Sequence record: OQ067374.1
Origin: Escherichia phage a20
Strand: one strand, 5' to 3'
Length of the DNA: 64,000 bases
Made by a program: the position numbers and the translations under genes
In this document: piece after piece, positions 1-25,389 of the stretch
Layout: each line of letters begins with the position of its first letter
Numbering within the stretch: position 1 is the stretch's first letter
Notes under the pieces: model-generated
What the model was told of the DNA's origin: nothing
The model's input: only the letters and a program-made list of their open reading frames with translations
Databases searched by the model: none

Positions 1-946
1 TCAGTAGCTTTAGCACGCCATGATTTCTCTTCACGAATCATTTCACCTGTTTCTTCGTCAAGGAATTCGCGAGCATACCAACCGGCTTTAGGCTTAACTA
101 CAAAACCAATTTCAGTTGCCATTTCTAACAAGCCACTGAATGGGTCAATACCGCCATCAAAATTAACCGTGATCGGGAAAGTAGATTTCTCTTTAACTGT
201 GCGAGATTTTTCTGCTTTCAACGTGAAGTCATAACCGGTCAATTCTGTACCTTCTTTAACCTGACGTTTAGAGATAAAAAATACCGTGTTGGCAGAATAA
301 AGAATACCTGTACCACCGCCCATAATCTCTTTAGGATACAATCCGCCAATTTCCATTGCTGTATGGTTAATTGCAACACACGGAATATCTTTAATAGTCA
401 GATACGGGGTCACAATGCGGAACAGAGATTTAAGTGCCTTAGCACGAGACATATCACCTACAACTTTCTCGTTCAATGCATCTTCGGTTTCTTTCTTAGA
501 TGCAGTATTACCAATCGAGTCAATAAAGATAATAACTTTATCACCGCGTTCAATAGCGTCAAGCTGATTAGTCATATCGACTTTAAGTTGTTCGACAGAT
601 TGAATCGGAGTATGAACTACACGGTCTAAATCAACACCCATTGAACGAAAATAAGATTCTGAAGCACCGAATTCTGAGTCATAAAACAAACAGATTGCAT
701 CTTTATATTTCTTCATATACGCTGCAACCATAGTCAGCCCAAACAACGTTTTAAAGTGTTTAGAAGGAGCAGCAAAAATAGTTAAGCCTGATTGCAACCC
801 TGCATTCAGTGCACCACCTAATGCAATATTCAACATCGGAATACGAGTAGGGACTTCATCACGATTATTAAACAGCTTAGACTTAGTCAAGTCTGCAGTC
901 ATTTTAGAAGTAGAAGCTTTAATCAGACGAGATTTTAAATCAGACA
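1..946 (-). CDS. uvsX: UvsX RecA-like recombinase, 5' part only (3' end lies beyond window start)
   Basis: Minus-strand reading from ATG at plus 944-946 gives MSDLKSRLIKASTSK...; codons at the window edge read REFLDEETGEMIREEKSWRAK. Matches T4 UvsX as I recall it. Absent from the ORF track because it is truncated. Confidence 0.85.
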
Positions 947-1045
947 TTGTATTTTTCCATAGGCATCATTATATTTTACTCATGTTTAAAAGATAAGATG
1001 ATTATATACTAAGGGTTATACAGCATTTAAAACTTTAAATGGCTC

Positions 1046-1594
1046 TTAACGAGCCCATTTGATGATTTCTGTAATCAAAACATTACGTTCGCTTGCATTA
1101 AATCCTATAACTTTGTTAGCACCATCATGATTAAGTAATTGATACGTTTGGATTTTGTTATGAATTGCAAACTCTTCAAAATGTGAAATGACTGTATTAA
1201 AACCGAATGAAGACAAAGTAATAAGGTCGTCTTCAAAACTTTCAGTCATTTCGTTACGTGTTAAAATAATTGTGAACACATCATGGTTTTGGCAAAGACG
1301 AACATAATCCTGTTCATAAACGTCAAGAACCGAGTCCGCATCTTGTCGAATACGTCCATAAACCCAGTTACTAATATATCCACGGTCTAACAGATAAATC
1401 TTAGTAGGGTCTAAATAATTCAACATCGTTTCGAAACAGCCAACTTCATTTCGAGACTTAACATCGAAACGTCCATCAACTGTTCGTTTAGGGAAATCAA
1501 TCTTTACATATCTTTCACTAATTTCCATTATGTCATTAATGAAAGTTGTTTTACCAGCATTATCCGGGCCATCTACTAAAATAATTTTAGCCAT
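1046..1594 (-). CDS. P-loop kinase (NMP-kinase-like fold)
   Basis: 182 aa; Walker A GPDNAGKTT near N-terminus and LLDRGY resembling the thymidylate-kinase DRY motif. Lies where T4 has beta-gt. Confidence 0.5.
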   Translation of the reverse strand: MAKIILVDGPDNAGKTTFINDIMEISERYVKIDFPKRTVDGRFDVKSRNEVGCFETMLNYLDPTKIYLLDRGYISNWVYGRIRQDADSVLDVYEQDYVRLCQNHDVFTIILTRNEMTESFEDDLITLSSFGFNTVISHFEEFAIHNKIQTYQLLNHDGANKVIGFNASERNVLITEIIKWAR

Positions 1595-1595
1595 T

Positions 1596-2495
1596 TTATT
1601 CCTCGATTACGACATCTTCATATTTAGGTATATTATACGGTGAAGAAATTAAAGCATTAAAGTAGATGAACTCACCAAGACCTGGATGAAATACTTCTTC
1701 AGGATTTTCGAAATATTGAATCTTCGGACGTCCTTTAAGAATTTGATAGTATTCAGTTTTAGTTGGTTTAAAAATTCGAATCAACGCTTCTTCAGGATAC
1801 TTATTTCTGTCGAAGCTATTATTTGGATCGGTTATATAAAGCGGTTGGCCTAATTGAATTGCACATTCAACCACTTGTTCAAAACGATAGCATGGGTCAC
1901 TAATTCGAAATGGATGAAAAATACCATCTAGATGAATAGGAGCCAAATCACCTACAAGACGCTGCATGATGGAAGGACGTATAACTTTCTGCGTTACGAT
2001 AATCTTATTACCATCTGCACCTGCGTTAACCAGCACTTCTTTTTGACGTTCATTCAACACAGTAGTTTGAAGTGAACGATTAACCGACAACATATCGGTT
2101 TTTAAGAATTCGTCAATATAAAAACGTGGTTTATTAGGGTCTGCAGTGATATTGAAATTGAATTCTACATCAAAAGCGCCGTCATATCCGGTGATATCTG
2201 TGATTAGAAAATCACAATCATAATAAGCAATTAATGAATCAACCACAAATTCATTTTCAGTCCAGAAATATTTACGAGTGTTATACGCGTTATCTTTATA
2301 CCATAATGGAACAAACTTAAATTCTGGGAAAAGACGTTCACATTCTTTAATATCAGATGCATTACGTGGATATGTAATCACATCACCTGGATTAGCACGG
2401 TGCAAATGAAGTTGGAAGTTGCCATCCTTAAGGATAGCATACTGCCCAGTTTCATAAGACCGCATACTCAAAATAGGTACGCGGAAAATAGCCAT
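1596..2495 (-). CDS. hypothetical protein at the beta-glucosyltransferase locus
   Basis: 299 aa, tightly packed between the P-loop kinase and the hydroxymethylase; no resemblance to T4 beta-gt or alpha-gt as I recall them; contains a DCD (DxD-like) tripeptide. Confidence 0.55.
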   Translation of the reverse strand: MAIFRVPILSMRSYETGQYAILKDGNFQLHLHRANPGDVITYPRNASDIKECERLFPEFKFVPLWYKDNAYNTRKYFWTENEFVVDSLIAYYDCDFLITDITGYDGAFDVEFNFNITADPNKPRFYIDEFLKTDMLSVNRSLQTTVLNERQKEVLVNAGADGNKIIVTQKVIRPSIMQRLVGDLAPIHLDGIFHPFRISDPCYRFEQVVECAIQLGQPLYITDPNNSFDRNKYPEEALIRIFKPTKTEYYQILKGRPKIQYFENPEEVFHPGLGEFIYFNALISSPYNIPKYEDVVIEE

Positions 2496-3211
2496 TAGTC
2501 AAGGAATCCTTTAACATAATCAAAATCACGTTCAAACACATGGGCACTTACCATGGTATGAGTATAATCACCAACTTCTACACCACATTCGTTAGCGATA
2601 TAATGAAGTAATTTTCCTTGGAGATAAAAATCCAACTGCATAACAACAGCACAGTTCTGAGAACGCATATGACAGTGGGTATAAAGCTTACCATCACGAA
2701 TATAATAAGTCACTGAGTCAGTACATGGATATTCAAGAGTTTCGTCCGAATCAAGCAAAGCCTGATCAGAACTTTCTAGAATTTGGAACACAACTCTTCG
2801 AGAGTTAGGCTTCTCTTTAAGTTCTTTTAGAAGAGCTGGTAATTGGGCCGCAATGCGAGGACCATAGAAAGTGTTGAAGTTCGCCGGCAAAACATCTGAT
2901 TTTGGTTTAGAAATAAATTTAGCGACATTAGGATATGCCTTAAACGCTTCTTCTGCGTTGGTACCACCAGAAATCATAAACTTCCAGAAGTCTTCGGCAT
3001 ATTCATAAGAGATGCGGTTAATACGTGGGTCAGTCATTTTGAATGATGATGGAGTGTCAACAACTACTGTCATAGACCCAATTTCATTACAACGTCCAAT
3101 ACGAGAATCAGTTACGAATTCCGGGTTTTCTAAAATTTCACGATTGACTGCTTTAAATGCGGTTTGAAAATCTGCGGCTTTGATATATTTCATTGTGTTA
3201 TGTTTTCCCAT
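2495..3211 (-). CDS. 42: deoxypyrimidylate hydroxymethylase (thymidylate synthase superfamily, gp42-like, divergent)
   Basis: 238 aa; SRRVVFQ ... YPCTDSVTYYIRDGKLYTHCHMRSQN resembles the catalytic-Cys region of T4 dCMP hydroxymethylase; syntenic with gene 42; GAGGT precedes the ATG. Confidence 0.65.
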   Translation of the reverse strand: MGKHNTMKYIKAADFQTAFKAVNREILENPEFVTDSRIGRCNEIGSMTVVVDTPSSFKMTDPRINRISYEYAEDFWKFMISGGTNAEEAFKAYPNVAKFISKPKSDVLPANFNTFYGPRIAAQLPALLKELKEKPNSRRVVFQILESSDQALLDSDETLEYPCTDSVTYYIRDGKLYTHCHMRSQNCAVVMQLDFYLQGKLLHYIANECGVEVGDYTHTMVSAHVFERDFDYVKGFLD

Positions 3212-3253
3212 GTTTACCTCAATACAATTTATTATATACTCAATTCATAAAGC

Positions 3254-3493
3254 TTATTTGAATTTCTTAGCGATGTTGATATAACGTAAAGCTTCAGCAT
3301 CGATACTTCCAAGAACACTATGAAGAAATGCATCAGCGTAGTATTCCAATTGAACAGGTTCTTTAATCACTTTAGCCGCTTTGGTTCCAAACAGGCCCAT
3401 AAGGGCCTTTTTAAGAATTTGTTCATTAGTGTTCAGTTTCATAGTCAAAATCTCTTCATTAAGTTGGTGGTTAAAAGTTTTTCTAGAAATCAT
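3254..3493 (-). CDS. hypothetical small protein
   Basis: 79 aa ORF in operon context; no motif recognised. Confidence 0.4.
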   Translation of the reverse strand: MISRKTFNHQLNEEILTMKLNTNEQILKKALMGLFGTKAAKVIKEPVQLEYYADAFLHSVLGSIDAEALRYINIAKKFK

Positions 3494-4650
3494 TCTGGGT
3501 ACCTCAAAGCGTCATCAGAGTTAGTTATATCAATAATAGATATAGAATTTTCTGATAACCCATTTTTAGATAACTGACGTTTATAATATCTTTCACAATA
3601 TGTACACGTCGTCCCGCAGATTTCATTAGCACAATCGAAATCTGGATGTCTGAACCACCTTTTTTCTAAAAAGCCATCTAACAAAGAGGTTTCAATATTT
3701 ACTGTATGTGAAAACTCAGTTTCGTTTTCAAGAGTGAAAATAGTCTCTAAAGGCTTCCACAGTTCTAACAAATTACCTTCAAACTTTTCAGAAGCGTATG
3801 CTTCAAGAACTTTCAAAATGTAGTCTGTGCTACCTGTACGTCCTGAAACTTTGAATTGAGTGATACCAATATCATTATAAAGTTTCAAATCTTGAGGACG
3901 AACAAAACGAGTTCTCAACCAGTTAAATGGGTCTGTATCACGAGCTTTAATGCAGTGTTGCATTGGATATCCGTTTAAGGATTTAGCATCATCAGCTGTA
4001 ACATCAGTACTATGGAAAATATAGCAAGAGTCACGATAGCTACAATGTGTTGTATACCCTTTACCAGCATTAGAACAGAACTCATTTACAAGAACTTCAA
4101 ATATTATATTGTTCTTATTGCAAAACTCTGCTGCACGCTTCAGGAAAGAAACTGAACGGTTCTTATGAATTCCACAGCAGACCTTTTTGATATTATATTG
4201 GTCATGCAAGTATTTGATTTGAGTTACAGCATCGACATGTAGAATTGTTGAAACTTCAATCTCAATGTCTTTATTGACTTCACGAACAATTTCCATAACA
4301 ACAGGGTTAGCGATAGTAATACGCCATACGCCTATTGACCAAAGATACTGAACATAATCCTGAATAGCTTTCTTCTTCCACTCAACTAGTTCTCTTTTTG
4401 AACCAGGATTTATCGTGTTGAGTGTATAGTTAAAGCAAATACCTAATTCGTTACAACGTTTAACGTAATCTTCTAACATCTTTTTGTCAACGTCAGGAAG
4501 CCTAAAATCAGGTCTGGCTGCTACAAAAGCCATTTCTCTTGTAGAGCCGTATACTTCGTTTATCAAGCTATTAGGATAAGTTTTATTGAGCTCTACGATT
4601 TTATCAAGAAGAGCTAAATCAAAATTCGTTCCAATTTTAAAAGTATTCAT
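3490..4650 (-). CDS. hypothetical protein with C-terminal CX4CX3CX2C cysteine cluster
   Basis: 386 aa; C-terminal CANEICGTTCTYC plus further scattered Cys; no family confidently assigned. Confidence 0.6.
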   Translation of the reverse strand: MNTFKIGTNFDLALLDKIVELNKTYPNSLINEVYGSTREMAFVAARPDFRLPDVDKKMLEDYVKRCNELGICFNYTLNTINPGSKRELVEWKKKAIQDYVQYLWSIGVWRITIANPVVMEIVREVNKDIEIEVSTILHVDAVTQIKYLHDQYNIKKVCCGIHKNRSVSFLKRAAEFCNKNNIIFEVLVNEFCSNAGKGYTTHCSYRDSCYIFHSTDVTADDAKSLNGYPMQHCIKARDTDPFNWLRTRFVRPQDLKLYNDIGITQFKVSGRTGSTDYILKVLEAYASEKFEGNLLELWKPLETIFTLENETEFSHTVNIETSLLDGFLEKRWFRHPDFDCANEICGTTCTYCERYYKRQLSKNGLSENSISIIDITNSDDALRYPE

Positions 4651-4707
4651 TTTTTTTGCATCTCACGTTAATTGATGCGATGGTTTTTGCAGGTCTTACT
4701 TAAATTA

Positions 4708-5097
4708 TTATAGATTCGGTTTATATGATTTAAATGTTTCGAATTCGCCTTTATTCATAAGAGCTTTGAATTCGTCAGGACGCATAGCTTTGTCGTCGAT
4801 AATCCAATCATATACTGGTTTATGTGTTAGCAAATTATGGTACTTCAAACCAATGTTTTCCAAGTTCTGAATCAGACTTGGGAGAATGTCAATTGCTATA
4901 CGTCCAGGACCTACTGACTTCATACCGCGAGCAGTGTAAAGCGTTATGGTATGCCCTGCATCATACAGAGCATTAATAGCAGTCACCATTTCGACGTCTG
5001 GTTTGAAGTTCACGTAATCACGATTGTTATTCCACTCTGTTATACAATCATCGACGTCCACGCAAAGATGTAATGGTTTCATAGCAATATCCTTCAA
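4708..5097 (-). CDS. HAD-superfamily phosphatase-like protein
   Basis: 129 aa; LCVDVDDCIT resembles HAD motif I (DxDx); start may be the second Met at 5082. Its 5' end overlaps the 3' end of the homing endonuclease gene. Confidence 0.5.
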   Translation of the reverse strand: MKDIAMKPLHLCVDVDDCITEWNNNRDYVNFKPDVEMVTAINALYDAGHTITLYTARGMKSVGPGRIAIDILPSLIQNLENIGLKYHNLLTHKPVYDWIIDDKAMRPDEFKALMNKGEFETFKSYKPNL

Positions 5098-5809
5098 TAG
5101 AATTTTTAATATTATCAGCTATACGCTTTCTAGGAATACCCGTTTTCTTTTCAGCTATCCTAAGAGATTCATAGTAATTTTCGTTTATTTTAACAAATTT
5201 TTGAGACTTGTGAGCATTTTTGCTTTCGTCCTGATATCGATAATTAAGATATTTAGGCGATTTTACTCTCTTTTGAATCGTGGCAGAAGATATACCCAAA
5301 TCTTTAGCCGCTTCCCGACAGGATTCATAATATTTGCCATCTACATTAATCTTTAGACCATGTAATGCAGGTTTACCATACCTCCTGTGCTTTTCTTTAC
5401 CCCTAGCTATAGATTCAGCTGACAAAGTTTTACCCCATCTTGGGTTTTTATCACCAACTAAACGTCCTTTATTTGCCTTAGAAATTTTATCCTTGGACCT
5501 TTGGGATAACCCGTCAGAACCGCCTTCGCCACCAGTTTTAAGATTGTAATAATTTGGGTCTTTAACTATGTCTAATGTTATTAGAGCCTTTTCAGCTATT
5601 TTTAATTCTTCTCTCGAGCTATGGTAGGAAATGATTTCTTTAAGAAAATTTTCCTTCCCGTATTTCCTTTCAGCCTTTTTATATAATTTACCAGAACCTT
5701 TATATAAATCTAAAGGCTCGGCTTCTTCAGCCGAGTGCATTCCTAAATAAACTTTACCGTTTATAAGATTAGTAGTTTTGTAGAGATAATGTATCAAATT
5801 CGTTCCCAT
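5048..5809 (-). CDS. GIY-YIG homing endonuclease (seg-like)
   Basis: 253 aa; N-terminal IHYLYKTTNLINGKVYLGMHS is a GIY-YIG module; basic C-terminal DNA-binding region. Confidence 0.8.
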   Translation of the reverse strand: MGTNLIHYLYKTTNLINGKVYLGMHSAEEAEPLDLYKGSGKLYKKAERKYGKENFLKEIISYHSSREELKIAEKALITLDIVKDPNYYNLKTGGEGGSDGLSQRSKDKISKANKGRLVGDKNPRWGKTLSAESIARGKEKHRRYGKPALHGLKINVDGKYYESCREAAKDLGISSATIQKRVKSPKYLNYRYQDESKNAHKSQKFVKINENYYESLRIAEKKTGIPRKRIADNIKNSIEGYCYETITSLRGRR

Positions 5810-7479
5810 TGATGAGTGATATCGCCACCGATTGGACGATAGGAAACACCAGTTTCTTTATCAGTTAGTACCCATTTACCAGGATTTTTTGTAATCAGAG
5901 TAGCCGTTACAGGTTCTGCTACGTCATAACTAATAGAGCCGTCTTGAAGTACACGGCCCATATTACGTAATTGCTTAGTCAGAAGTTCCATACCTTTATA
6001 ATATGCGGCTACCGCTTTAAGTGGATTATTCTTGAAATAACCACCTAATGCAATCCAGATAATTGCCACTGCCAAATGATGATACTCGTTAAACGAACTC
6101 ATCTTTCCATATTTGTAAACTAATGGATTGATGTTAATAGTCACATTACAAGTTGTTTCATCAATAGTAAACTGTCCCCAGGTCGGATTAGCATTGAATT
6201 CATCATAACCTGAAACAGCATAAAGCACTTTAGCTTCATCATACAATTTTGGCCCGTAAATCTTGGTTTCGCCAAAATATCCACGAGGGTCGATAAACTT
6301 AACTTCGCCGTTATCAGTAATCATAGTATTACTGAAGTTCGGGTCACCATGAATAACAGAGTACTGTCCCTGAGAACGGTTATGATAACGAATAAGATGT
6401 TCTAAAGCTTGTTTCAGCATTGGCTTCAGACGTCCAATCTTAGTGTAGTTCACATGTGTGATTTTACCAAATGAATCAATCAATGGTTGAATGCTTTCAC
6501 AACGATCAATAACTTTCGTATAGAATTCTTTAGTGAAATCACGACGAACAGTTTCAGGACTTACAAAATAAGTGTCTGTGCTGAATTTCAGTGCATCTAA
6601 AATTGTATCAACAATTTGTGGACGAGCAAGACTTGATTTGGATTTAATATATTCAAATGCCGGCTTACCTTTAATGCGTTCCATTTCAAAGTTATTTTCA
6701 TTAACAGAAACTAACTGAGGGACTGAATCTGATTTCACTTTCAAATACCACGAAATCTCATCTTTCTGAAGAGCTCGGCCCTGTTCGGTTAATGCGAATT
6801 TAGTTACAGTTTCTTCACCGATTTCAACTGCATTAAAACTACGATTAAGTTCACGAACTTCATGAGCTTTTTCAAGTTTAGGCATATCACCTAAATCAAT
6901 TAGATTCATAAGCTCTGATTTATTGAATGCGCCGCTGTAAAGGAATTCTACGAAATCACGTCCTTTGCAGTATTCATGAATTTCTTCATCAGTAGAACCC
7001 ATATAGAATTCCCAGTCTTTGAACTGATAAATTCCTACAACATTACCACCTGTTGAACCTACGTTAGTGATATTTTCACCGTCGAAATTATATCGACATT
7101 CGTCGCCCTTAACATAGATTGCGTTAACATTCCAAGACCATGAACCAAAATCGGGAATAATATCACACCAGTTAACAATTACATTATGGCCGTCTAAATC
7201 TTTGTGTAATTTAGCAAGAGCATAAGCAGATCCATACGCTTCATCAACTGTACGAATAGTCACATTGAACCCTTCTTGCTCACAATAAGCTCGAACAGTT
7301 TCAGCAAATTTTGAATGAACTACTACAATAATTTCATCTGCGCCTAGGTCAGAATAAATTGTATACAAATTGCTCAGAATAGTGTCTTGTTTATAGTTAA
7401 CAAGCACCTTAGGAATATGGTGAGTAATTGGATATAAACGAGTTGCCAGTCCAGCACCAAGAATAACAGCTTTTTTCAT
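5794..7479 (-). CDS. bifunctional sugar-1-phosphate nucleotidyltransferase / APH-like sugar kinase
   Basis: 561 aa; N-terminus MKKAVILGAGLATRLYPITHHIPKVLV is the classic G-x-G-T-R-x-x-P nucleotidyltransferase signature; C-terminal VIHGDPNFSNTMI ... FIDPRG is the HGD-x4-N catalytic loop of APH/choline-kinase-type kinases. Confidence 0.75.
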   Translation of the reverse strand: MKKAVILGAGLATRLYPITHHIPKVLVNYKQDTILSNLYTIYSDLGADEIIVVVHSKFAETVRAYCEQEGFNVTIRTVDEAYGSAYALAKLHKDLDGHNVIVNWCDIIPDFGSWSWNVNAIYVKGDECRYNFDGENITNVGSTGGNVVGIYQFKDWEFYMGSTDEEIHEYCKGRDFVEFLYSGAFNKSELMNLIDLGDMPKLEKAHEVRELNRSFNAVEIGEETVTKFALTEQGRALQKDEISWYLKVKSDSVPQLVSVNENNFEMERIKGKPAFEYIKSKSSLARPQIVDTILDALKFSTDTYFVSPETVRRDFTKEFYTKVIDRCESIQPLIDSFGKITHVNYTKIGRLKPMLKQALEHLIRYHNRSQGQYSVIHGDPNFSNTMITDNGEVKFIDPRGYFGETKIYGPKLYDEAKVLYAVSGYDEFNANPTWGQFTIDETTCNVTININPLVYKYGKMSSFNEYHHLAVAIIWIALGGYFKNNPLKAVAAYYKGMELLTKQLRNMGRVLQDGSISYDVAEPVTATLITKNPGKWVLTDKETGVSYRPIGGDITHQWERI

Positions 7480-7663
7480 GTTGTGGTCCTCATTGGTAAG
7501 TAGGAGTATTGTACACTATTCTAGTTAAAGCATTCATACTTTGCTTGTAGTCCAATCATAATCCATCCAATTACAAGTGTTGGAATCATTACCGGAGCCG
7601 TTAAGCTCCAGTAGATAGTCATGACAAGCATCAATAGTAAAAGTCCTATTGCTATTGCTTTCA

Positions 7664-8296
7664 TTATTCGCCTCGTAACATGGCACCTAGTGCACCACCA
7701 GGGTGGAACTTAAGGAAATCATTAGAGGTAAATCCACGTTCAGACGAAAGGTTGATAGCAAACGTATCGATAAGCGCTAACAACAATGTAGTGGACATAG
7801 TCGGAGCCAGAGAATTCTCATCAACCTCTACTGCGATGCCTGTACAGAAAGAGTAATCAAAAAGGGCTTCATTTTCTTGTGGAATGTCTGGGTTACAATG
7901 CAACAGAATCTGTTTGACGTTCGGACGAATCATTTTAAGATGCTTAGCCACGCCTATCATTTCTTCAGTTTTACCAGAACGACTAATATGAATCAACACA
8001 TCATTAGGCGCAATGAATCCTGCATCACCGTGAGAATAATGCCCAGTGTTCAAGTACATACTCGGGATACCTAGTGAAGCAAAAGTCTCGGAAGCTTTAG
8101 TTGCGATATTAGCATTCTTACCAACACCTGTAATAATTACTCGGCTTTCATAATTACTAAGTCCCGGGCGTCGAAGAGTTTCTAGAATAGCATTATAACG
8201 AGCAGGGTTTTGACTAATTACTTTGGCCATAGCGGCCAAAGAAGAAGCTTGTTTTATGATTGCGTCAATAGCGATAGTAATAGGAGTAGTTTTCAT
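7664..8296 (-). CDS. SIS-domain sugar-phosphate isomerase (KdsD/KpsF-type, arabinose-5-phosphate isomerase-like, no CBS domains)
   Basis: 210 aa; VIITGVGKNANIATKASETFASLGIPS...HGDAGFIAPNDVLIHISRSGKTEE and LAPTMSTT...FHPGGALG align closely with the SIS domain of E. coli KdsD as I recall it. Confidence 0.75.
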   Translation of the reverse strand: MKTTPITIAIDAIIKQASSLAAMAKVISQNPARYNAILETLRRPGLSNYESRVIITGVGKNANIATKASETFASLGIPSMYLNTGHYSHGDAGFIAPNDVLIHISRSGKTEEMIGVAKHLKMIRPNVKQILLHCNPDIPQENEALFDYSFCTGIAVEVDENSLAPTMSTTLLLALIDTFAINLSSERGFTSNDFLKFHPGGALGAMLRGE

Positions 8297-8336: not shown

Positions 8337-11048
8337 TCAAAAATCGAACATATCGAACAGAGATGCTTTCTTCTCGTAATCGAGTTTCGCTGCTGATGTG
8401 AATCCTTCAAGTGGTTTAATAAATGTCTTCTCAAGGAGAACAGTGTAGTCCATCCAATGAAGTACGTCGTCTTTAATTAAATCTGTGATTTCAGTGCCAG
8501 AAGGCCATGCGATACATTTATCACCGAATGGGTTTCCTTCACGTAAAGGCAGAACATATACTTTTTCACCTTCTACAACTTGCGGTGCATCGATATTACC
8601 TTTGATAGCCCGGTTATATGTCAGAATTCCACGAATATGGAACGGACATTTGGGACCAGGGAATCCACCTACGTCATATTTAGCAATGTTATTCGCAGAA
8701 GATACCGACGCGATGCTAATATAATTCAATTGGCGGAATTCTTTTTCAAACTCTTTAAAATATTCTTGTAATGATTCTTCACCTTCTTGAAGCATACGAC
8801 GAATACATTCTTTAAGAGCTTTCTGTACTGCTTTAGGAGTCGAAGATTTCTGTGTTTCGAGACCCATGATTTTAAGCTTAGGTTCAGCGTATCTGGTTCC
8901 TTCCATATCCCACACGTTTAATGCATAACGTTTCTTACCAGTCCAGAATCCACCAATACCTTTAGAACCGAGCGGAGGACCAGCGATAGCTTCTCGGTCC
9001 ATGAACATCAAATGTTGCTTATTATTCATGTATTCGCACATTTCACGGAAACCTCTATCAATAGCAGGTTCCATACGTTCACGAGCGAACTTATCTAAGA
9101 AGTCTACCCAATGGTTGGTATCACGGAATTTAGATTCACCAACCTTATCGATAATTTTATCAGCAGATACGTAAATAGAGTCTGTATCACCATATAGAAC
9201 GAAAGCTTCACCTTCTGTACCACAAACTTCATTCAGATATTCATTAACTTTACGTTCAATCCACTGTAAAGCCATTTGACCAAATGTTGTGATTGCAGTA
9301 GCATTACGCAAATCATAATAACGGAACCAAACGTTGCCAAGTGCACCATAAAGTGAGTTGATAAGCAATTTACGGTTAATCTGTGCAGTCATACCTGCAA
9401 CTTCAGTACGTTGAGCTCTAAACAACATTTCATTAAGAGATTTAGCAGACAACTTTTTAATCTTTTCTTTAATCTCATCACTGAAGTCGAAACGATAATC
9501 AACATCTAATGGTTCGTCAACAGAAAGATTAGGATTATGCAATGCCTCTTTAATTATTTCACCATTACGTTGAGCTGCAAGCATGTAACCTTTATGTTCT
9601 TTACGTTGATTAAAGACCTTAGTGATTTCAGTTGGAACTACACCATCACGGTCTTTATAATACATCATGCCGTTAGGAGAGCAACTGTACACATCTGAAG
9701 GACGTTCAGCGATTGCGTTAATATAATCATGCAGTGGAGCTACTTTAAACGTTCCTGCTATTGTTTCCGGGCTAATATTCACTTGGCGAATAATACTTGG
9801 ATACAGAGATGTAAGGTCGAAACTCATTACATATTTGTATCGATTTGGAATAGGTTCCTTAACAAAAGCGCCAGGATAAGGTTGAACCGGGTGAGAACGA
9901 CCTTGTGGAATCACCTTGTTCTGCTCTTTAAGGCTATTAAAAATAATAGCATCCCATGTTTTAATTGGACTGAACACAGATTGAATCTGAATTTTAGCAT
10001 AATAACCCATGTCCAAGCTCAAGTTAATGAACTGGCGTTTAGCATCAATTTGCAATACACGATATACGTCGATGATGTTATAGCTTATATATCGTTGATG
10101 ATTACTTTCGCGAAGTTTAGAAATAGGACCGTCATATTTCAGTTTACCAACGTTCAATTCAAATTCTGAAATGTAATCCAGAGAATACGACGGTTGATTG
10201 GTAAAAGAGAATTTTTTGTAAAGGTCAATGTAATCAAGAACAGAGATACCGAACAATGTAATGATTTCACGAGAACCATACATGTTTTCGATAACTTTAA
10301 CACGAGTTTTACGATGCGGTGATAAACGTTTCGCAGTAGATTCGCCAAAAATATTCTTGATTCGGTTATACACATATGGAATATCAAATGACTCAACGTT
10401 CCATCCAGTCAAAATGACAGGAGTTTTCTGTTGCCAGAAGTTGAGATATTCCATCAACAATTCTTTTTCGTTATCGAACGGCATATAAATGATTTTATCG
10501 ATAATTTCAGATGGAACTTCATCACCGCCTTGTTCTTGAAGCTTAGCAGCGATTTCAATAGACCATTCTTCTACATTACCATACGGAGAATTCAATAGAT
10601 CAAATACGTAGAACCTGTCGTCAATTGAGTCATAATGGGTGATAGCATCAATCGGATGTTTTGCTTGTGACGGCTCAGGGAACCCATCCGGAGATGTTAC
10701 TTCGATGTCGAAGTTAGCCACACGAATTTTTGTATGGTCGTATTTGATTTCATAGTTATAAGTGTCAGACAAATACGCCAATTTGAAATCGTCCATGCCA
10801 AGTGCTTCAAGTCCGATATCTTCCATGCGTTTAATCCATTGGGAGGCATCACGCATATTAGCGAACAACTTACGAGTACACGGTTTACCGTAGATATCGA
10901 AATATTTCGTAGCCTGACTTTCTGGACAATGAGCAAACAGTGATGGTTTATATTCTACTTCACGAGTACGTTCACGGCCATTAGAATCGATGTAACGTTC
11001 AAAAATTGAATCACCAATCTGTTCAACCGTTAAGTAAAATTCTTTCAT
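8337..11048 (-). CDS. 43: DNA polymerase (family B)
   Basis: 903 aa; exonuclease FDIE and polymerase YGDTDS motifs; reads as RB69 gp43 from memory. Confidence 0.97.
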   Translation of the reverse strand: MKEFYLTVEQIGDSIFERYIDSNGRERTREVEYKPSLFAHCPESQATKYFDIYGKPCTRKLFANMRDASQWIKRMEDIGLEALGMDDFKLAYLSDTYNYEIKYDHTKIRVANFDIEVTSPDGFPEPSQAKHPIDAITHYDSIDDRFYVFDLLNSPYGNVEEWSIEIAAKLQEQGGDEVPSEIIDKIIYMPFDNEKELLMEYLNFWQQKTPVILTGWNVESFDIPYVYNRIKNIFGESTAKRLSPHRKTRVKVIENMYGSREIITLFGISVLDYIDLYKKFSFTNQPSYSLDYISEFELNVGKLKYDGPISKLRESNHQRYISYNIIDVYRVLQIDAKRQFINLSLDMGYYAKIQIQSVFSPIKTWDAIIFNSLKEQNKVIPQGRSHPVQPYPGAFVKEPIPNRYKYVMSFDLTSLYPSIIRQVNISPETIAGTFKVAPLHDYINAIAERPSDVYSCSPNGMMYYKDRDGVVPTEITKVFNQRKEHKGYMLAAQRNGEIIKEALHNPNLSVDEPLDVDYRFDFSDEIKEKIKKLSAKSLNEMLFRAQRTEVAGMTAQINRKLLINSLYGALGNVWFRYYDLRNATAITTFGQMALQWIERKVNEYLNEVCGTEGEAFVLYGDTDSIYVSADKIIDKVGESKFRDTNHWVDFLDKFARERMEPAIDRGFREMCEYMNNKQHLMFMDREAIAGPPLGSKGIGGFWTGKKRYALNVWDMEGTRYAEPKLKIMGLETQKSSTPKAVQKALKECIRRMLQEGEESLQEYFKEFEKEFRQLNYISIASVSSANNIAKYDVGGFPGPKCPFHIRGILTYNRAIKGNIDAPQVVEGEKVYVLPLREGNPFGDKCIAWPSGTEITDLIKDDVLHWMDYTVLLEKTFIKPLEGFTSAAKLDYEKKASLFDMFDF

Positions 11049-23575: not shown

Positions 23576-25389
23576 TGGTGTTTAACCCTATGCATGATTT
23601 CTTTATTTTTGCCTAGATTAAATCCGCGTTCGTTCGGATTTCCAAGATAACCGCATGTTCTTCTTATGGTGTTCATCTTTTTAGGATCAGTTTCTCCACA
23701 AACTGAACAAACAAATCCGTTTTCAGTAGGAGTCATTTCATGGGTACTTCCGCATGTAAAACATTTATCTACTGGCATATTAACACCAAAATAATCTAAA
23801 TGTTGTGCAGCATAATCCCATACAGCCTCAAGTCCTTTTAAGTTATTTTTCATATCAGGAAGTTCAACATAAGAAATATGACCGCCGGTCGCTATGAAAT
23901 GATATGGCGCTTCACGAGAAATCTTTTCAAACGGAGTAATATTTTCTTCTACTGAAACATGGAAACTATTAGTGTACCAGCCTTTATCAGTGACATCCTT
24001 TACACTTCCATATTTTTCTGTGTCGAGTTTACAGAAACGATAACACAAGTTTTCGGCAGGAGTAGAATATAAACTAAAAGCAAAACCGGTTCTTTCGGTC
24101 CACTGCTTAAGACGAGCATTCATTTTAGTTAAAATTTCCTGTCCAATATCACGACCGACAAGAATATTCAATTCGTGAATACCAATGTATCCTAGGGACA
24201 CTGAACTTCTACCGTTTTTAAATAACTCAATTATATCGTCATCAGGTTTAAGACGAACCCCGAATGCACCTTCTTGGTAAAGAATAGGAGCAACAGTCGC
24301 TTTAACTCCTTTTAAGGAACTAATTCTACACATCAAGGCTTCAAAACACAGGTCCATTCGTTCGTTAAATAGCTCAACAAATTTCTGTTCATTGAACTGT
24401 GTTCCAATATAAGAATCTAATGCTATACGAGGAAGATTCAGTGTTACAACGCCAAGATTATTACGACCGTCAAGAATTTCATTTCCAGTTGAATCTTTCC
24501 ATACACTCAAGAAACTACGGCAGCCCATTGGAGAAACAGGAACAGATGAACCGGTAATAGCTTTATTATTCTTAACCGAAATAACGTCAGGATACATTCT
24601 TTTGCTTGCACATTCTAACGCAAGTTGTTTAATATCATAGTTTGGATCGTCTTTATAAAGATTAACACCTTCTTCAATGAACATAACAAGCTTAGGGAAA
24701 ATAGGAGTTATCCCATCACGACCAAGACCTTTAATACGATTTTTCAGAATTGCTTTCTGAATCATTCGTTCAGTCCAGTCAGTTCCCGTACCAAATGTAA
24801 TTGTTACAAAAGGCGTTTGTCCGTTTGAACTAAAGAGAGTGTTTACTTCATATTCATAAGCTTGGAATGCGTCATAGACATCTTTTTCTGTTTTGGATTG
24901 AGCATAATTCAACGCATCAGCGATTTGCCATTTTTCTGCATCTTCAATATGTTTTGCATAGGTGCGTTTAACATAAGGAGAAAGTACTTTATCTACATTA
25001 GCAAAAGTCGTTCCGCCGTATTGGTGAGAAGCAACCTGTGCAGTAATTTGTGCCATAATTGCAGTAGCAACGCCAATTGATTTAGGAGTTTCAATCTGCG
25101 CATTACCTAGCTTAAATCCGTTTTCAAGCATTCCTTTTAAATCTACTAAACAACAATTAGTAAATGGAAGAGCAGGGGAATAATCAATATCATGGAAATG
25201 GATAATTCCGCTTTCATGTGCTTTCATAATAAAAGACGGGACCATATTTTTGGCAATGTGTTTAGACACAATACCAGCCATAAGGTCCCGTTGAGTTGGA
25301 AAAACACGAGAATCTTTATTAGCATTCTCGTTTAAAAGGTCTTTATTAGTTTTATGAATCAATCCTTCAATTTCTTTTTCAATTGTCAT
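23572..25389 (-). CDS. nrdD: anaerobic ribonucleoside-triphosphate reductase
   Basis: 605 aa; C-terminal glycyl-radical RRTCGYLG and Zn-ribbon cysteines; uninterrupted (no intron). Confidence 0.97.
   Translation of the reverse strand: MTIEKEIEGLIHKTNKDLLNENANKDSRVFPTQRDLMAGIVSKHIAKNMVPSFIMKAHESGIIHFHDIDYSPALPFTNCCLVDLKGMLENGFKLGNAQIETPKSIGVATAIMAQITAQVASHQYGGTTFANVDKVLSPYVKRTYAKHIEDAEKWQIADALNYAQSKTEKDVYDAFQAYEYEVNTLFSSNGQTPFVTITFGTGTDWTERMIQKAILKNRIKGLGRDGITPIFPKLVMFIEEGVNLYKDDPNYDIKQLALECASKRMYPDVISVKNNKAITGSSVPVSPMGCRSFLSVWKDSTGNEILDGRNNLGVVTLNLPRIALDSYIGTQFNEQKFVELFNERMDLCFEALMCRISSLKGVKATVAPILYQEGAFGVRLKPDDDIIELFKNGRSSVSLGYIGIHELNILVGRDIGQEILTKMNARLKQWTERTGFAFSLYSTPAENLCYRFCKLDTEKYGSVKDVTDKGWYTNSFHVSVEENITPFEKISREAPYHFIATGGHISYVELPDMKNNLKGLEAVWDYAAQHLDYFGVNMPVDKCFTCGSTHEMTPTENGFVCSVCGETDPKKMNTIRRTCGYLGNPNERGFNLGKNKEIMHRVKHQ

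Follow-up and report, generated by a model that had tools for sequence, protein, structure and literature searches.

A GT-B-fold protein in the beta-glucosyltransferase slot of Escherichia phage a20 is a putative arabinosyltransferase of the 5-hydroxycytosine pathway

The stretch of DNA analysed here, referred to as the window, comprises 64,000 nucleotides (nt) of Escherichia phage a20 (sequence record OQ067374.1) and carries near its beginning an open reading frame (ORF) for a 299 amino acid (aa) long protein, which we consider a candidate for the glycosyltransferase (GT) that attaches the first arabinose to the modified cytosine of the phage DNA. According to the ORF listing of the window, the frame occupies 1596..2495 on the minus strand, like all other genes described below, and has an ATG start and a TAA stop codon; by our estimate, a frame of this length is very unlikely to arise by chance in DNA of 35% GC. 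The first 8.4 kb of the window are 99.0% identical to Escherichia phage NRG-P0074 and 98.1% identical to RB69, and the window is an RB69-like Mosigvirus genome. The 299-aa ORF is the intact orthologue of RB69 ORF047c plus ORF046c (gp46:47), with 99% identity over 299 aa. In the RB69 reference (NC_004928 24597-25497; L002:2097-2997), an extra T at gene nucleotide 545 splits the gene into these two ORFs; the gene is unsplit in the window and likewise in more than 340 other records. Apart from this 1-nt insertion in the reference, there is no biological difference between the window protein and RB69 gp46:47 or its DLP3 counterpart gp79. In BFVD and UniProt, the RB69 fragments ORF047c and ORF046c are still entered as separate proteins.

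The gene order in T4 is uvsX - segA - beta-gt - 42, and an earlier reading of this DNA from the sequence alone had placed the 299-aa protein exactly at the position of the beta-glucosyltransferase gene beta-gt, between uvsX and gene 42. This holds for one side of the gene: like T4 beta-gt, the 299-aa ORF lies directly downstream of a gene-42 homologue, which encodes a 238-aa ThyA homologue (2495..3211; RB69 gp48; Pfam Thymidylat_synt). On the side of uvsX, however, it is followed by a kinase gene and not by segA. This gene encodes a 182-aa thymidylate-kinase-like P-loop kinase (1046..1594; RB69 gp45; PHROG 761 thymidylate kinase, E 4e-45). The N-terminal 315 codons of uvsX, identified by translation and by the annotation of matching records, are found at 3..947, and the gene extends past the window start. 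The start codon of the 299-aa ORF overlaps the stop codon of the ThyA homologue (TAATG), and its own stop codon is separated by 1 nt from the start of the kinase gene (TAA-A-ATG). Through these junctions, the genes for the ThyA homologue, the 299-aa protein and the kinase are translationally coupled. A promoter and terminator scan of 900..5200 returned signals at or below shuffled expectation, and this absence of signals above chance is compatible with co-transcription of the cluster. With T4 beta-gt, the 299-aa ORF thus shares the slot directly downstream of a ThyA-family gene between uvsX and gene 43, the DNA polymerase gene (8337..11048; ORF and annotation), which marks the boundary of the cluster.

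Sequence searches assign no function to the protein. Pfam (E <= 1) and NCBIfam gave zero matches, none of the 120 listed homologues carries a precomputed Pfam domain, and PHROG 3891, which matches with an E value of 7.5e-156, is labelled 'unknown function'. The GT4 profiles Glycos_transf_1 (PF00534) and Glyco_trans_4 do not match the protein, and a PDB sequence search with the single sequence or with a 40-sequence profile returned only noise and no relative. Most of the records listed name the protein 'hypothetical protein', some '(putative) RNA polymerase binding protein', and a single one 'glycosyltransferase'. The label 'unassigned' given to it in the sequence-only reading is therefore correct for Pfam, NCBIfam, PHROGs and most GenBank records listed, but not for the one 'glycosyltransferase' record and the literature of 2026. 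The same reading had seen no resemblance to T4 beta-gt or to the T4 alpha-glucosyltransferase (alpha-gt), which is confirmed by profile-profile comparison and by tblastn. Comparisons with hhalign against T4 beta-gt, T4 alpha-gt, RB69 gp3 and a gp3-family alignment, which aimed at aligning catalytic motifs, yielded probabilities of 0.1-0.3%. T4 beta-gt (0.3%) and T4 alpha-gt show no profile homology with the 299-aa family, and the alignment of gp3 and alpha-gt (0.15%) is likewise sequence-unrelated; the gp3 family comprises only five clusters and is too shallow for a broad GT4 profile. When gp3, T4 beta-gt and T4 alpha-gt were searched by tblastn against the 64-kb window, no significant match was found, and none below E 6 for beta-gt. 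A diverged beta-gt was considered as an identity of the protein and ruled out, because profiles gave no signal and the closest structures resemble GT4 enzymes rather than beta-gt.

In contrast to the sequence searches, structure prediction is informative. The AlphaFold2 model of the 299-aa protein, based on a 40-sequence alignment, reaches a mean predicted local distance difference test score (pLDDT) of 94.1 and a predicted template modelling score (pTM) of 0.88, and shows two Rossmann-like beta/alpha/beta domains with an inter-domain cleft. The top structural neighbours are all GT-B enzymes, among them MshA, with Foldseek template modelling (TM) scores of 0.60-0.63, and sucrose-phosphate synthase; UDP-GlcNAc 2-epimerases, which have the GT-B fold and are not transferases, are also within the top Foldseek matches. 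The predicted structure is thus GT-B and not a non-transferase fold, and the fold class is a further feature shared with T4 beta-gt. Invariant residues of the family cluster in a few places. In the N-domain, SMRS (10-13) and KDGN (23-26) follow the first strand, and in the C-domain the first strand (192-194) is accompanied by the invariant residues F193, P195-F196-R197 and D200. Further invariant residues are T222, P224-N225 and K246, as well as HPG at 270-272, which is followed by E/D275 at the start of the C-domain helix 271-278. When placed by secondary-structure topology only, T222/P224-N225, K246 and HPG with E/D275 would fall at the nucleotide-sugar site of GT-B enzymes, and R197, K246 and the HPGxxE motif are the predicted ligands of the UDP-sugar. 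Compared with T4 alpha-gt and GT4-like retaining GT-B enzymes (MshA, BshA, PimA, sucrose-phosphate synthase), the family has the invariant SMRS in place of the N-terminal Gly-rich loop. In addition, the 299-aa protein is unusually small for this group and lacks the EX7E motif in its C-terminal domain, where only E/D275 is conserved and residue 283 is a variable Ile.

The base to which a sugar would be attached can be deduced from the neighbouring ThyA homologue. RB69 and DLP3 DNA contains mono- and poly-arabinosylated 5-hydroxycytosine (5hoC), not 5-hydroxymethylcytosine (hmC), and it was reported that arabinosylated cytidines take the place of all canonical cytidine in virion DNA (Lee et al., NAR 2026, PMC13326640). 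The same study identified RB69 gp48 as a flavin/O2-dependent synthase of 5-hydroxy-dCMP (5hodCMP) and defined the corresponding signature, Asn at the position of ThyA D169 and Asp at N177. The window ThyA homologue has both residues: it reads MRSQN, with Asn at the E. coli ThyA D169 position, where T4 gp42 has MRSND, and ...QLDF..., with Asp at the N177 position. It is near-identical to the solved HY126 structures 9iqc, 9ir2 and 9iqu. The product of 2495..3211 is thus a flavin/O2-dependent 5-hydroxy-dCMP synthase rather than a dCMP hydroxymethylase. The sequence-only reading had named hmC-containing DNA as the acceptor; this has to be corrected to 5hoC, because the window ThyA homologue carries the hydroxylase signature and the base was reported as such by Lee et al. 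2026. With T4 beta-gt, the 299-aa protein hence shares a place in a cytosine-hypermodification pathway, its role as a sugar transferase being putative. In the clusters of two distant metagenomic contigs, a Flavodoxin_2 gene (NAD(P)H-dependent FMN reductase-like) was observed (L003:1-523 and L004:6739-7293), which in L004 is located immediately upstream of the hydroxylase-type ThyA gene; none was seen in this part of the window. Its product could be the flavin-reducing partner of the flavin-dependent 5hodCMP synthase.

The genes between the hydroxylase and gene 43 provide a likely source of the sugar donor. They encode a SIS-domain arabinose-5-phosphate isomerase of 210 aa (7664..8296; RB69 gp55; Pfam SIS, PHROG 5670 and literature), a bifunctional 561-aa protein with an NTP-transferase N-domain and a kinase C-domain (5794..7479; RB69 gp52:53, AfhE-like; Pfam NTP_transferase and APH-like kinase) and a HAD-type phosphatase (4708..5097; RB69 gp51, AfhF-like; PHROG 1238 and literature). 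By analogy with AfhE and AfhF of HY126, gp55, gp52:53 and gp51 are predicted to make UDP-arabinofuranose (UDP-Araf), and gp51 was proposed to remove the 5-phosphate from arabinofuranose-1,5-bisphosphate, again following the AfhF analogy (Lee et al. 2026, PMC13326640). The names of these genes vary in the databases. NRG-P0074 lists the 561-aa kinase/pyrophosphorylase as 'dCMP deaminase', and among the records listed the HAD phosphatase appears as 'phosphoheptose isomerase' and the hydroxylase as 'thymidylate synthase' or 'dCMP hydroxymethylase'.

The 299-aa family is widespread and closely tied to this type of modification. Full-length members were found in 348 phage records, including phages of Klebsiella, Serratia, Yersinia, Proteus, Edwardsiella, Pectobacterium, Providencia and Shewanella, and fall into 138 clusters when grouped at 90% identity; in a profile search among 1.84 billion proteins, the broad family grew to 231 clusters at 50% identity. 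Members are present in all groups with reported arabinosyl- or pentosyl-5-hydroxycytosine, i.e. RB69, Bas47, LC53, 92A1, Acinetobacter phages and Thanatos. The order 5hodCMP-synthase-type ThyA - GT - kinase recurs in Thanatos-1 (TH1_062, TH1_063, TH1_064) and in metagenomic contigs of 122 kb and 356 kb, with the kinase in third position in L003, L004 and L008; the hydroxylase signature, which is found in the ThyA homologues of Thanatos, L003 and L004, and the kinase motifs are kept, at a GT identity of merely 37-47%. The 299-aa family is an orphan at the sequence level and is confined to phages with the 5hoC pathway; as a GT-B family it would work in the manner of GT4-type transferases, and it took the place of beta-gt at the same locus. 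More distant structural relatives occur in other Straboviridae, such as a protein of Serratia phage Muldoon (BFVD A0A5P8PH66; 18% identity, TM 0.75), and an ORF of Serratia phage PS2 (H85, 24150-24683) is 24% identical over half of the protein. A 410-aa viral protein, BFVD H9NC58, has a TM score of 0.79 to the 299-aa GT. These relatives may belong to related base-glycosylation systems with other sugars or bases.

A proposed function of the protein has already been published, and the entity itself is therefore not new. Lee et al. 2026 (PMC13326640) listed RB69 gp46:47 and DLP3 gp79 as the putative 'arabinosyltransferase 1', stated the arabinosyltransferase activity as a hypothesis and assigned gp3 to the second arabinose; the same two-transferase hypothesis is found in the Durham-collection paper. 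Lee et al. explicitly left undecided whether the first arabosylation takes place at the level of DNA or of the mononucleotide. RB69 gp3 (ORF003c; HY126 GT) is sequence-unrelated to the 299-aa family, is encoded about 22 kb away outside the window and has a narrower distribution: 211 records and five protein clusters, restricted to Mosigvirus, with one copy, and Acinetobacter phages, where it is found in two places per record. Of these two kinds of GTs, many phages contain only the 299-aa family. Moreover, the number of gp3-type genes, 0, 1 or 2, matches the mono-, di- and tri-arabinosylated DNA reported for Thanatos, RB69 and DLP3, respectively. Since the 299-aa family is universal and gp3-type copies vary between 0 and 2, the 299-aa family is presumably the base-proximal transferase, and gp3-type transferases are add-ons to it. 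The gp3-type enzyme is probably identical to the 'Aat' of Mahler et al. 2025.

An assignment in the opposite order has to be considered, because the sole solved and presumably characterised GT of the system is the gp3 orthologue of HY126 (9iqz/9ir0), the 299-aa family being without a solved structure, and because Thomas et al. 2018, who described arabinose in RB69 DNA and did not discuss the 299-aa ORF, proposed ORF003c as the transferase. In this case, the 299-aa protein would be a GT with a different role, adding a second sugar after the first one from gp3 or using an acceptor other than nucleic acid. We consider this improbable, as gp3 types are missing from many phages that encode the 299-aa family, the 5hodCMP synthase and the arabinose genes, e.g. 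Thanatos, in whose DNA the pentose is O-linked directly to cytosine. Furthermore, in DLP3 it is the third sugar that gp3-type enzymes attach, to DNA that is already arabinosylated, and the 299-aa family stays in close linkage with hydroxylase and kinase genes.

Taken together, the fold, the distribution in phages with arabinosyl- or pentosyl-5hoC and the assignment by Lee et al. 2026 support the sequence-only reading in its view of the protein as a positional candidate for the DNA sugar transferase that would use the predicted NDP-pentose. We hold it to be somewhat probable that the 299-aa protein is a small GT-B arabinosyltransferase, which uses UDP-Araf to add the first arabinofuranose to 5hoC in replicated DNA and is followed by gp3. 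The conserved gene module, the agreement between gp3-type copy number and number of sugars, and the absence from the 64 kb of any gp3, beta-gt or alpha-gt homologue that could compete for the role speak in its favour. The neighbouring isomerase, kinase/pyrophosphorylase and phosphatase would make the donor UDP-Araf, and the 299-aa GT would attach the base-proximal arabinofuranose to the C5 hydroxyl of 5-hydroxycytosine. The acceptor would most likely be 5hoC within newly replicated phage DNA, as in T4 glucosylation, and the second arabinose would then be added by the gp3/ORF003c-type enzyme encoded outside the window. For the level of the acceptor, four observations make DNA the most likely choice. 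The synthase gp48 and the gp1-type dNMP kinase gp159 are enough to place 5hodC in DNA (Lee et al. 2026, PMC13326640), and thus a route via 5hodCTP exists; the later arabinosylations take place on DNA, according to the same study; cytidine is reported to be completely replaced; and the T4 locus provides a precedent.

Several findings weigh against this proposal. Curated GT families in Pfam and NCBIfam have no sequence match to the 299-aa protein, and the accessible literature describes no transfer activity of this family. Purified DLP3 gp79 did not arabinosylate 5hoC-containing DNA with either UDP-Araf or UDP-arabinopyranose (UDP-Arap; Lee et al. 2026, PMC13326640), and for the Thanatos protein TH1_063, formation of UDP-xylose out of UTP and xylose-1-phosphate was reported, but no transfer. 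The family is acidic, with a median isoelectric point (pI) of 5.05 and a net charge of -10 for the window protein; T4 beta-gt has a pI of 9.05. Finally, RB69 gp159 converts 5hodCMP to 5hodCDP in vitro (Lee et al. 2026, PMC13326640), which leaves the role of the second, thymidylate-kinase-like kinase gp45 unexplained. If glycosylation takes place on DNA, an additional kinase is not accounted for, because gp159 already phosphorylates 5hodCMP; yet this kinase is a strict companion of the GT and is even fused to it in distant relatives.

The inactivity of gp79, the acidity and the kinase could be accounted for if the GT arabinosylated free 5hodCMP. In this scheme, gp45 would phosphorylate arabinosyl-5hodCMP, the pre-glycosylated dCTP would be polymerised, and only the later sugars would be added on DNA. 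We regard this as possible, yet rather unlikely. Under this scheme, the lack of activity of DLP3 gp79 on 5hoC-DNA would make sense, as would the conservation of a second kinase, since gp159 handles 5hodCMP and gp45 would have no substrate other than the glycosylated nucleotide. The kinase family occurs in 343 phage records versus 348 for the GT, a near one-to-one relation with almost identical taxon counts, and the two genes are translationally coupled and are fused in both orders in diverged lineages. The top neighbours sucrose-phosphate synthase and MshA use phosphorylated small-molecule acceptors, but they are also neighbours of the gp3-type enzymes that act on DNA. Uncapped 5hoC in DNA is mutagenic and is attacked by base-excision enzymes of the host, and early capping would therefore be advantageous. 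On the other hand, we know of no phage sugar modification at the nucleotide level, and T4 beta-gt, which occupies the same slot, acts on DNA. In addition, gp159 would pass some 5hodCMP on in unglycosylated form, yet cytidine is reported to be fully replaced in virion DNA, and glycosylated nucleotides are, according to a 2026 preprint, not readily processed by polymerases.

The gene fusions deserve a closer look in this respect. GT-kinase fusions are represented by P0233, P0235 and P0244. Full-length comparison among these three gives identities of 38-44%, and this low identity of the lineages indicates that the fusion is old. P0244 (L011:5412-7064) is encoded on a T4-like contig between a 213-aa ORF and genes for SIS, NTP-transferase and U32 proteins, i.e. 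within a full homologous cluster. The reverse order, kinase-GT with the same kinase domain, is found in P0241 (L014:8001-9662, L015:503-2164). The relation of the fused kinase domain to gp45 is statistically weak (Pfam Thymidylate_kin E 1e-4, hhalign 3-5%), with the P-loop and a DR..IS..VY motif aligning. GT-kinase fusions seem not to be described in the accessible literature. A second type of fusion carries an N-terminal HAD (DxDG) phosphatase domain in front of the GT and comprises five clusters (P0144, P0154, P0157, P0171, P0175). BLASTP found no similarity between the window HAD phosphatase and the HAD domain of P0144, which therefore belongs to a different HAD subfamily. The HAD-GT fusions do not join consecutive steps of the pathway, and thus a fusion does not require consecutive chemistry; this reduces the weight of the GT-kinase fusions as an argument for a nucleotide acceptor.

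The UDP-xylose reported for Thanatos leads to a different reading, in which the protein does not transfer sugars at all and forms the sugar nucleotide, by making or interconverting the UDP-pentose donor. TH1_063 (L008:4995-5897) is an orthologue of the 299-aa ORF, with 47.5% identity, 300 aa and the same synteny, and when UTP and xylose-1-phosphate were supplied, purified His-tagged TH1_063 yielded a compound whose mass and tandem mass spectrometry pattern are those of UDP-xylose. Non-transferase UDP-GlcNAc 2-epimerases within the top Foldseek matches point in the same direction. Nonetheless, we judge this reading to be very improbable. The fold of sugar-1-phosphate nucleotidylyltransferases is NTP_transferase and not GT-B; an NTP-transferase is already present in the cluster as the N-terminal domain of gp52:53, for whose HY126 homologue AfhE that activity was reported. 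The 299-aa protein matches neither NTP_transferase, which Pfam finds in the 561-aa neighbour instead, nor Epimerase_2, and a UDP-GlcNAc 2-epimerase is not its best structural match. Phages without gp3 would, moreover, be left without any transferase. The UDP-xylose could be the work of an E. coli contaminant or the result of a reverse glycosyl transfer in which contaminating UDP served as acceptor, and the negative transfer result for TH1_063 is uninformative, because the acceptors used lacked the 5-OH group. Thanatos and the window share the order ThyA-like gene, GT and kinase and differ in the published label 'UDP-xylose pyrophosphorylase', which clashes with the GT-B fold and with the arabinosyltransferase assignment.

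Further genes of the cluster extend the picture beyond the arabinosyltransferase candidate. The U32-family protein of 386 aa (3490..4650; RB69 gp50; Pfam Peptidase_U32 E 7e-11, with a weak NCBIfam UbiU match) is the product of the most conserved gene of the cluster, which was found in 221 phage records and shows, in all records listed, at least 82% identity across genera. In the distant clusters L011 and L013 it is still 48-49% identical, where the identity of the GT falls to 26%. Within the stretches examined, a gp50 homologue accompanies GT and kinase in clusters in which no ThyA homologue was detected, by tblastn in L011 and L013 and among the called genes in L014 and L015. In Thanatos (TH1_066) and Erwinia phage Virsaitis27 (ORF37), the U32 gene is directly followed by a gene for a chorismate mutase type II, with Pfam CM_2 E values of 2e-8 and 1.7e-11, respectively, both beyond the curated cut-off. 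Outside the window, the loci on which these observations on the U32 gene rest are L008:6462-7852, L016:4492-6002, L011:10053-11153, L013:4153-5262 and L014:10179-11276. The U32 proteins TrhP and UbiU/V have been connected with hydroxylation that depends on prephenate and not on O2, and prephenate is the product of chorismate mutase. Because of these relatives and the adjoining chorismate mutase, gp50 is a candidate anaerobic hydroxylase and may, by analogy, act as an anaerobic C5-hydroxylase complementing the O2-dependent gp48. Lee et al. 2026 (PMC13326640) labelled gp50 as a 'sugar or heterocycle reductase', and a link between gp50 and O2-independent hydroxylation was not found in the accessible literature. 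The slot of the chorismate mutase in Thanatos and Winklervirus phages is occupied in the window by a 79-aa ORF (3254..3493; RB69 ORF049c; PHROG 8601, function unknown). It was considered as a chorismate mutase, which is unsupported, as it has no Pfam match and aligns poorly to chorismate mutases.

Two features of the cluster lie apart from these functions. A gene for a 253-aa GIY-YIG homing endonuclease (5048..5809; an ORF annotated so in NRG-P0074) sits between the HAD phosphatase and the 561-aa kinase/pyrophosphorylase genes and overlaps both. It is found in NRG-P0074; RB69 and most of the relatives listed lack it, and their matches, split into two pieces, cover only 90% of the region. The endonuclease is outside the arabinose pathway. 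A hydrophobic 47-aa ORF (7521..7664), hypothetical in relatives, is flanked by the isomerase and kinase/pyrophosphorylase genes; in RB69 this interval contains the shorter ORF054c, noted as 'similar to T4 42-imm intercistronic region'.

Arabinosyl-5-hydroxycytosine shields a large group of T4-like phages from restriction enzymes, CRISPR-Cas and DNA glycosylases; some of these phages are candidates for therapy against E. coli, Klebsiella and Acinetobacter. The family described here has no Pfam or NCBIfam model, and its correct definition would lead to better sequence-based prediction of phage DNA modification. The enzyme for the first sugar on the base carries out the committed step of the modification. 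If 5hodCMP rather than DNA were the acceptor of this step, it would be, to our knowledge, the first nucleotide-level glycosylation route to hypermodified DNA.

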